Source: Escherichia coli
GTDB lineage: Bacteria; Pseudomonadota; Gammaproteobacteria; Enterobacterales; Enterobacteriaceae
DNA: 64,000 nt
Reading direction: 5' to 3' (one strand)
Assembly: GCF_003334335.1 (NCBI RefSeq)
Contig: NZ_QOWQ01000003.1
Position numbers and translations under genes: made by a program. The stretch's first letter is position 1; every line of letters begins with the position of its first letter. Shown here in pieces: positions 54,517 through 55,608 of this stretch. The notes beneath the pieces are model-generated. The model was not told where the DNA came from. It saw only the letters and a program-made list of their open reading frames with translations, and searched no databases.

Positions 54517-55320
54517 TTATGCTGGCAACGGTCCGTTTTGTATAGGGGCCGTTGCCTTACTTTTTAAATGTTCCATCGCGGCGATGCATACTGACTCATA
54601 TTTAAACAGATCGTCAGCGAAAAAAATGTCCAACTTATCAATACATTCCTGGCTCAATGAATGTGCCTGTAGCGAGAAGCTTAAAACCTCATACCCGAGA
54701 CGTTTTCTAAGTGAACTATCTGGAATACTCATAATATCTTCAAGCACACCACTTCCCATTCCCGGAAGATTTAGTGGATTAAAAAGAAGATTGATATTAA
54801 GCATTGATATTATCGAAGGAAACTTTAGGAGACTCTCATTTTTTTGAATCGCAGCAAAAATGCTCCCGACAGGATGTATATAATTTTGTTCATAGTATAT
54901 AGTCCTTAAATAGTGAATAACCAACCTGTTTTTTATACTGATCAAATTGGTCATTTTTTCTGGGCGAAATACAGAAGTGACATCCATTCCAATAAAATCT
55001 TTATTTATACCTCTTATCCGAATTTCACTACCATAAAGATTATTAATTATTACTCTATATTTAACATTGTCCTGCAGATATGTATCAAAACTAAGTGCTG
55101 GCGCTCCTGGCTTTGAGGCATCATAGTTAATGTTAGACATATAGGCAATCATATAATTAAAGTTTGATTCTGCTATTTCATCGCAGTCACATTGACCCGT
55201 TGATATAAAGAAAGTGAGTGCTGTCATAGTAGACTGCAGCCTTTCTTTAAAAGAGTCGAAAGCCAGGCTTTTAATATTTAAATCACCATAATTACTCTGT
55301 ATTAAGTTTGTAGAAAACAT
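54517..55320 (-). CDS. ydjO: Protein of unknown function YdjO (AT-rich gene)
   Basis: ORF track gives 271 aa from 55332; I placed the start at internal MFSTNL (267 aa, uncertain). No recognisable catalytic motifs; AT-rich. Confidence 0.75.
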   Translation of the reverse strand: MFSTNLIQSNYGDLNIKSLAFDSFKERLQSTMTALTFFISTGQCDCDEIAESNFNYMIAYMSNINYDASKPGAPALSFDTYLQDNVKYRVIINNLYGSEIRIRGINKDFIGMDVTSVFRPEKMTNLISIKNRLVIHYLRTIYYEQNYIHPVGSIFAAIQKNESLLKFPSIISMLNINLLFNPLNLPGMGSGVLEDIMSIPDSSLRKRLGYEVLSFSLQAHSLSQECIDKLDIFFADDLFKYESVCIAAMEHLKSKATAPIQNGPLPA

Positions 55321-55608
55321 CTCCCGCCTCATATTGTTAACAAAATTATTATCTCATTTAAATCTAAGTCATTTACAATATAAGTTTAAGAGCGACGCCA
55401 CAGGATGAACTATCAAAAATAGCTCATCATGATTAGCAAAACTTAACCATTTTAAAATAAATAAACAATTAAAGAAAAAAGATCACTTATTTATAGCAAT
55501 AGATCGTCAAAGGCAGCTTTTTGTTACAGGTGGTTTGAATGAATGTAGCAACGAAATACAGAATTTCAGGTCATGTAACTCCCGGCAAAACCGGGAGGTA
55601 TGTAATCC

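Follow-up and report, generated by a model that had tools for sequence, protein, structure and literature searches.

The stretch of Escherichia coli DNA analysed here (64,000 nucleotides of contig NZ_QOWQ01000003.1, RefSeq assembly GCF_003334335.1; hereafter the window) carries at positions 54517-55608 the gene ydjO together with a long AT-rich spacer that separates it from cedA. The window is DNA of E. coli K-12. The gene tcyP, on the plus strand, is followed after only 3 nt by ydjO, which is convergent with it on the minus strand; cedA lies upstream of ydjO on the minus strand and is followed by katE on the plus strand (Table 1). The ydjO reading frame runs for 271 codons from its first ATG at 55332, and RefSeq annotates a 'protein YdjO' of 267 aa from the ATG at 55320, so that the distance from the cedA stop codon is 276 nt to the longest open reading frame (ORF) or 288 nt to the annotated start. 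The original prediction, which had been made from the letters alone, named these genes and placed them correctly according to the ORF list and the RefSeq annotation, and its spacer of 277 nt was essentially right.

The base composition sets this stretch apart from its surroundings. Over its 1092 bp the content of guanine and cytosine (GC) is 34.4%, compared with 49.3% for the whole window; the AT content of 65.6% (50.7% in the whole window) is clearly raised, as would be expected of acquired DNA silenced by H-NS. The ORF (54517-55332) has 35.5% GC and the spacer (55333-55608) 31.2%, whereas tcyP, cedA and katE have 52.4, 51.5 and 52.2%, respectively. When sliding windows of 1092 bp across the 64 kb were taken as the reference distribution (mean 49.3%, standard deviation 4.2%), the ydjO stretch was found at z = -3.6, only 0.1% of the windows were equally low, and the minimum of the whole 64 kb began at 54531, which is essentially the ydjO stretch itself. 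The claim that ydjO and its spacer are much more AT-rich than tcyP and katE was therefore borne out by calculation. The only comparable low-GC patch in the window is located at about 44.4-46.7 kb, next to thrS (ORFs in 45282-47181, minimum about 37% GC). Its two neighbouring ORFs (157 and 471 aa) contain ankyrin-like repeats and seem to be the split arpB pseudogene, and the patch is probably another foreign islet.

Horizontal acquisition, which had been predicted from composition, can be seen directly when the junction is compared between genomes. The cedA locus was taken from 80 species-representative genomes and tcyP was located in each; 75 loci held both genes. In 67 of these 75 loci, from other species of Enterobacteriaceae, cedA and tcyP stand tail to tail with their ends 50-150 bp apart, and the short gap typically contains a single bidirectional terminator (AAAAAACCGCC...GGCGGTTTTTT). 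This empty junction was found in Salmonella, Citrobacter, Enterobacter, Klebsiella, Raoultella, Kluyvera and Kosakonia, and also in four further Escherichia species representatives (E. whittamii, Escherichia sp. E1V33 and two titled E. coli). In addition, the ancestral allele still persists within E. coli: among 5426 complete genomes, the full ydjO locus is present in 4257 (78.5%) and the empty allele in 1124 (20.7%), including an O127:H6 strain, while about 45 genomes have IS1 insertions or partial deletions at the locus.

When K-12 was aligned with the empty-site strain Esc14, the exchange could be resolved to the base. The K-12 junction has 1113 bp of 34%-GC DNA instead of 64 bp, and the displaced 64 bp comprise the bidirectional terminator together with the final six cedA codons, the stop among them. 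Homology ends no more than 3 nt past the tcyP stop codon (54511-54513) and restarts at TTCCTGGCGG (55627), within cedA. By this alignment, the acquired segment is larger than ydjO and its spacer, reaching from the edge of the tcyP stop to within the last six codons of cedA, and the C-terminus of CedA reads EGEVTE* in K-12 compared with ENEVEE* in the empty alleles. The CTCCCGG hairpin directly behind cedA is found in ydjO-bearing lineages and is absent from empty alleles; it arrived with the islet.

The pattern of substitutions shows that ydjO is a real protein-coding gene under purifying selection and not inert DNA. The ratio of non-synonymous to synonymous substitution rates (dN/dS, omega) of six alleles against K-12 lay at 0.14-0.27 in ydjO, whereas tcyP had 0.02-0.06 and katE 0.00-0.03; a seventh allele, from O157:H7, differs from K-12 at four sites, which is too few for such an estimate. 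The strongest signal came from the 175 divergent codons of a mosaic allele described below, in which 50 synonymous and 64 non-synonymous changes gave a dS of 0.75 and an omega of 0.23 (P = 8e-9 against neutrality). At the same time, ydjO evolves extremely fast and is dispensable. Two of the seven non-K-12 alleles of E. coli type are annotated as pseudogenes: that of the O157:H7 strain NE 1092-2, with a frameshift in the T7 run and the annotation 'frameshifted', and that of O111:H8, with a frameshift in the A7 run and an internal stop. The same lengthening of the A7 run was present in the unannotated assembly SRR14011867, from another lineage. Clusters of truncated products of 161-165 aa have about 2500 members against 8291 in the intact cluster, and dozens of further fragment clusters were obtained by profile search. 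Insertion sequences (IS) have also entered the gene, namely IS1 in two complete E. coli genomes, IS10 in a heat-evolved K-12 strain (PMC10044804) and an IS in O104:H4 isolates (PMC3486847). In Escherichia sp. MOD1-EC7003 only the last 32 codons of ydjO remain, and the 893-bp deletion is joined exactly at two 12-nt direct repeats. Since purifying selection is measurable and an intact orthologue exists in E. albertii, ydjO is not simply decaying.

The relatives of YdjO are confined to very few species. Among 5.8 billion protein clusters, a word-indexed search found them in E. coli and Shigella only, and phmmer, run exhaustively against 1.84 billion representatives, gave near-identical matches (68-100%) only, apart from one protein (P0034). 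This candidate distant homologue (26% identity, E = 1.5e-36) was rejected as an artefact of a contig with swapped A and G: its contig (Logan SRR33321306 contig 56313) is the E. coli tcyP-ydjO-cedA locus with 584 A to G and 445 G to A replacements and only 9 purines unchanged. A diverged relative from E. albertii was first seen in the survey of cedA loci, at the same site; a profile search of the 5.8 billion clusters added the full 257-aa protein, so that the relatives comprise E. coli, Shigella and E. albertii only. The E. albertii gene has an intact frame with 34% GC, lies between cedA and tcyP and is convergent with tcyP. Its product is 32-34% identical to YdjO of K-12, compared with 97.6% for TcyP and 93.1% for CedA. 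At this locus in E. albertii (2066-3338 of the two loci extracted), chbG (YdjC family) and a gene of glycosyl hydrolase family 4 come before cedA, and no katE lies between them; katE is next to cedA in E. coli and most other genera.

In spite of the low protein identity, the two species have in common the EGEV-E* tail of CedA, the terminator arm GGCAACGGCCC in the 3' end of ydjO and the 21-nt upstream element. From these shared parts, the favoured, though not proven, reading is that both genes would descend from one insertion followed by very fast divergence. No E. albertii-type allele of ydjO was found inside E. coli by blastn. An E. coli-like genome (GCA_025283635.1) carries a mosaic allele whose product (P0006) is 76% identical to YdjO of K-12; the identity of this locus to K-12 is 92-100% in cedA and in the 3' third of ydjO but falls to 58-88% over about 650 bp that are made up of the promoter-proximal spacer and codons 1-175. 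This pattern indicates that the allele recombined with a more remote lineage of ydjO.

The 3' end of ydjO also serves its convergent neighbour. A GC-rich hairpin at 54524-54556, with an 11-bp stem and a T-rich tail behind it, stands 10 nt past the tcyP stop codon and falls within the final 12 codons of ydjO, which is on the opposite strand; its folding energy is -22.4 kcal/mol (z = -4.3). The same bases would thus encode the end of YdjO on one strand and form the predicted tcyP terminator on the other. As this hairpin lies within the islet, the islet replaced the terminator that it had destroyed. The GGCAACGGCCC arm is at the same position in E. albertii, and the C-terminal 'ATA' codons common to both species may be due to the constraint on this terminator at the RNA level.

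In the spacer, the hexamers ATGACT and AATAAT correspond to a constitutive RpoD promoter of ydjO identified by genomic SELEX (systematic evolution of ligands by exponential enrichment), and the table of the same study flags 'HNS' in the ydjO/cedA spacer (PMC3946193). A simple consensus scan of 54300-56100 gave five promoter sites, compared with 4.5 expected in shuffled sequences. Panyukov and Ozoline (2013) described the spacer, by the PlatProm method, as promoter island 1811053_320 ydjO/cedA and scored it as H-NS-bound ('K') from the datasets of Kahramanoglou and Oshima (PMC3661553, Table 1). In that paper, ydjO is also cited as predicted to be foreign by Nakamura and by Lawrence and Ochman.

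The spacer also contains a conserved 21-nt palindrome, which is identical in K-12 (55428-55408, minus strand) and E. albertii, the spacers being otherwise barely alignable. It is the longest common substring of the two spacers, against a mean of 8.5 nt and a maximum of 15 nt in 500 shuffles. Its 20-nt core was present in all of ten ydjO-bearing loci compared and in the E. albertii locus L094, and occurs once in the 64-kb window; in two of the extracted loci the element stands at 4306-4326 (L008) and, in E. albertii, at 3401-3421 (L094). The two arms, separated by five nucleotides, fold with -12.7 kcal/mol (z = -3.1), and in the P0006-type allele the outermost pair is changed symmetrically from G...C to A...T. 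The palindrome is thus a candidate operator of a dimeric regulator or a candidate RNA hairpin, and its features would fit either. A scan of 54000-56200 against Rfam gave only a chance snoRNA-like match (23 bits, threshold 50), and no mention of the palindrome sequence or of a terminator inside ydjO was found in the searchable literature.

Table 1. Genes and sequence features at the tcyP-ydjO-cedA junction (window coordinates)
Feature	Position	Strand	Basis
tcyP	53122-54513	+	
Acquired islet	54514-55626		Alignment of K-12 with empty-site strain Esc14; 1113 bp for 64 bp
ydjO coding sequence, 267 aa and stop	54517-55320	-	ORF list, RefSeq, dN/dS, E. albertii orthologue
Predicted intrinsic terminator of tcyP, 11-bp stem GGCAACGGTCC/GGGCCGTTGCC, then T-rich tail	54524-54568	+	Terminator scan, inverted repeat, folding
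12-nt direct repeat AACAGATCGTCA, left copy, within ydjO	54605-54616	+	End point of 893-bp deletion
T7 run, second frameshift site	54620-54626	-	T7 to T6 in O157:H7 strain NE 1092-2
A7 run, codons 159-161, frameshift hot spot	54839-54845	-	A7 to A8 in O111:H8 and SRR14011867
AT-rich spacer, 288 nt, about 31% GC	55321-55608	-	Composition; promoter island and H-NS site in PMC3661553, PMC3946193
Shine-Dalgarno-like GAGG, 6-7 nt before the ATG at 55320	55327-55330	-	Read from sequence
Sigma-70-type promoter ATGACT-16-AATAAT	55345-55372	-	Consensus scan; predicted start about 17 nt before annotated ATG
21-nt palindrome GATGAGCTATTTTTGATAGTT, arms ATGAGCTAT/ATAGTTCAT	55408-55428	-	About 100 nt upstream of start codon
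12-nt direct repeat AATAGATCGTCA, right copy, in spacer	55498-55509	+	Other end of 893-bp deletion
GC-rich hairpin CTCCCGG-TTTTG-CCGGGAG, without T-run, directly past cedA stop	55579-55597	-	Read from sequence
cedA	55609-55872	-	
katE	56055-58316	+	

YdjO is a protein of 30 kDa with an isoelectric point of 5.6 and no hydrophobic segment long enough to span a membrane. Searches of Pfam (even at E <= 10), NCBIfam, PADLOC, PHROGs and the sequences of the PDB gave no meaningful match, and the best family match was a PHROG of unknown function at E = 0.37, which assigns the protein to no curated family. The statement that the 267-aa product has no assignable motif was therefore upheld, and the check proposed with it, a hidden Markov model and structure-prediction search, returned no family and no significant fold match. 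We also considered paralogy with YjfZ (DUF2686) and YahL, which have a similar length and a narrow taxonomic range, and rejected it after pairwise BLASTP (E = 0.22 and E = 2.1). In structure prediction by AlphaFold2, the confidence (predicted local distance difference test, pLDDT) was 52 in the first model and 65 after addition of the E. albertii fragment. Residues 17-143 of the model (pLDDT 70-85) form a five-stranded sheet with a long helix before it and another helix after it, and the C-terminal half is helical. The only AFDB50 matches of Foldseek were YdjO and its E. albertii counterpart, and against the PDB it found nothing below E = 0.02. YdjO is a soluble acidic protein that is predicted to have a helix/five-stranded sheet/helix domain and a helical domain behind it. 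The best guess for its function, by inference only, is an accessory protein in biological conflict or host interaction and not in housekeeping. The more specific proposal, that YdjO is the sole protein of an Escherichia-restricted conflict or host-interaction module (for example a secreted effector or an immunity or anti-phage factor) gated by H-NS and a palindrome-binding regulator, is not specifically supported by these data and seems unlikely to us; if it were true, the 32% identity between sister species beside flanking genes at 93-98% would be the result of arms-race selection. A paper on the long-term evolution experiment links ydjO to H2 production; this link rests on two single-nucleotide polymorphisms and was not taken as evidence.

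Three other explanations of the locus were weighed. If ydjO were an ancestral enterobacterial gene, inherited vertically and lost in most lineages, its AT-richness would have to come from local mutation bias or function. A diverged orthologue at the same site in E. albertii would suit such descent, as would the one Escherichia lineage that clearly lost ydjO by deletion. However, the empty alleles are no scars and possess the intact bidirectional terminator common to Salmonella, Citrobacter, Enterobacter, Kluyvera, Klebsiella and other Escherichia, so that loss would require this terminator to be rebuilt many times; furthermore, no homologue outside E. coli, Shigella and E. albertii appeared among the 1.84 billion representatives, and the GC content at third codon positions is 0.31 in ydjO beside 0.51-0.57 in its neighbours. 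This explanation is already largely refuted, and we regard it as extremely improbable. It is also highly improbable that ydjO is no functional gene at all, that is, a chance or decayed frame in AT-rich junk which has been propagated by annotation. The lack of a family, fold match or known phenotype is in line with this idea, and so are the frequent pseudogenes, the many truncated clusters and the frequent IS insertions. However, stop codons make up about 7% of random codons at 35% GC, and by this base-frequency calculation 267 open codons would arise by chance with a probability of about 1e-9; moreover, omega remains at 0.23 over 114 substitutions, and E. albertii has kept the frame open although 68% of the amino acids differ.

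The remaining alternative traces the islet to a defined mobile element of which it would be a remnant, for example a phage moron, an integrative cassette or a passenger borne by an IS. The junction has indeed been used repeatedly by other cargo (family names in other genera were assigned by eye from translations): an IS3-family element in Enterobacter wuhouensis (L037, 4320-5676), a LysR regulator with a secreted DJ-1/PfpI-like protein in Kosakonia sacchari (L082, 4255-6117) and a helix-turn-helix antitoxin-like ORF in Siccibacter colletis (L078, 4684-5046). Against a mobile remnant, no integrase or transposase ORF, no tRNA and no direct or inverted repeat at the boundaries was found at the islet, which therefore does not have the hallmarks of a classical island or mobile element, and tblastn against 50,697 phage records gave no copy of ydjO. 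A plasmid origin was likewise rejected, since the three PLSDB 'plasmid' matches (NZ_CP134663.1, NZ_CP141089.1 and NZ_OL790696.1) are misfiled E. coli chromosomes of 4.8-4.9 Mb. An imperfect direct repeat of 21 nt (81% identical) between ydjO (54750-54770) and the 3' end of cedA (55618-55638) was treated as chance. Overall, we consider a mobile remnant very improbable.

Thus, the locus is most probably a small xenogeneic islet, in which about 1.1 kb of AT-rich foreign DNA with ydjO sits at the tcyP/cedA junction and is reported to be bound by H-NS. We propose that the 34%-GC segment came from an AT-rich donor and entered a permissive tail-to-tail junction, either in an ancestor of E. coli and E. 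albertii or by exchange between them. It displaced the bidirectional terminator and the final six codons of cedA and brought its own hairpins, one of which is now the predicted terminator of tcyP. In K-12, ydjO lies behind a weak sigma-70 promoter, and according to the literature spacer and gene are coated by H-NS. Because of this coating, we infer that ydjO is mostly silent and would need a counter-silencer, possibly a specific regulator acting at the 21-nt palindrome. A conditional benefit of YdjO could keep omega near 0.2, and the benefit would often be unneeded, hence the repeated loss of the gene.

Several points weigh against parts of this interpretation. The occupancy and silencing by H-NS are taken from published genome-wide data cited second-hand, and neither an expression value in an hns mutant nor derepression of ydjO was found in the searchable literature that mentions the gene. 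The transcript of ydjO rises together with that of ydjN (tcyP) in serum (PMC4145685), and this rise could be read-through from tcyP on the opposite strand and not induction. As far as identity goes, 32% equally fits distant relatives that were acquired independently, twice, at this site. Nothing that would show the route of arrival was found: no donor, no gene for mobility, no tRNA and no repeat on either flank. The function assigned to YdjO is a guess, its structure model being moderate (pLDDT 65) and without a significant fold match.

That ydjO and its spacer are AT-rich, acquired and bound by H-NS was known already, the spacer having been listed as an H-NS-bound promoter island from ChIP-chip and SELEX work, and the earlier published reading agrees with the present finding, which in this respect is correct but largely ordinary: the locus is a textbook small xenogeneic islet. 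Beyond this, it provides a base-resolved example of a tiny foreign cassette that overwrote the C-terminus of a gene and a shared terminator and left both neighbours functional. The palindrome offers a handle on the regulator and the inducing condition of a K-12 gene of unknown function, and together with the extreme rate of divergence, this invariant element is the only part with potential for something new.

Among known systems, the ydjO islet resembles the H-NS-silenced xenogeneic DNA of E. coli and Salmonella (the targets of Navarre, Lucchini and Oshima) in being an AT-rich, lineage-restricted insertion, and its spacer is itself the one listed as promoter island 1811053_320, with reported H-NS binding upstream, a weak constitutive sigma-70 promoter and a predicted foreign origin (PMC3661553, PMC3946193). 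Unlike typical H-NS-silenced islands, which hold several genes, it consists of a single gene in 1.1 kb; unlike typical H-NS targets, it overwrote the C-terminal codons of one neighbour and supplies the terminator of the convergent other; and the sharply conserved 21-nt palindrome upstream of ydjO is not predicted by generic H-NS coating. YahL, YdjO and YjfZ have been named conserved signature proteins of E. coli and Shigella (PMC11057252), and YdjO is indeed similar to such proteins in its very narrow taxon and lack of a characterised function. However, 20.7% of the complete E. coli genomes lack it, and it has become a pseudogene in O157:H7 and O111:H8, and is not exclusive, since E. albertii has an orthologue. 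The label of a conserved signature protein unique to all E. coli and Shigella (PMC11057252) is therefore not accurate for YdjO. In the same paper, ydjO was used as a 'universal' E. coli marker for quantitative polymerase chain reaction, with the lowest detection rate of the assay (93%) and the weakest correlation with culture counts (r = 0.65), and its absence from about one fifth of complete genomes fits both values. Finally, ydjO is comparable to taxonomically restricted (ORFan) accessory genes, of which the AT-rich arpB of this window is an example: they have low GC content, lack homologues outside the genus and often turn into pseudogenes. It differs from genes of the arpB type in its measurable purifying selection and its intact orthologue in a sister species.

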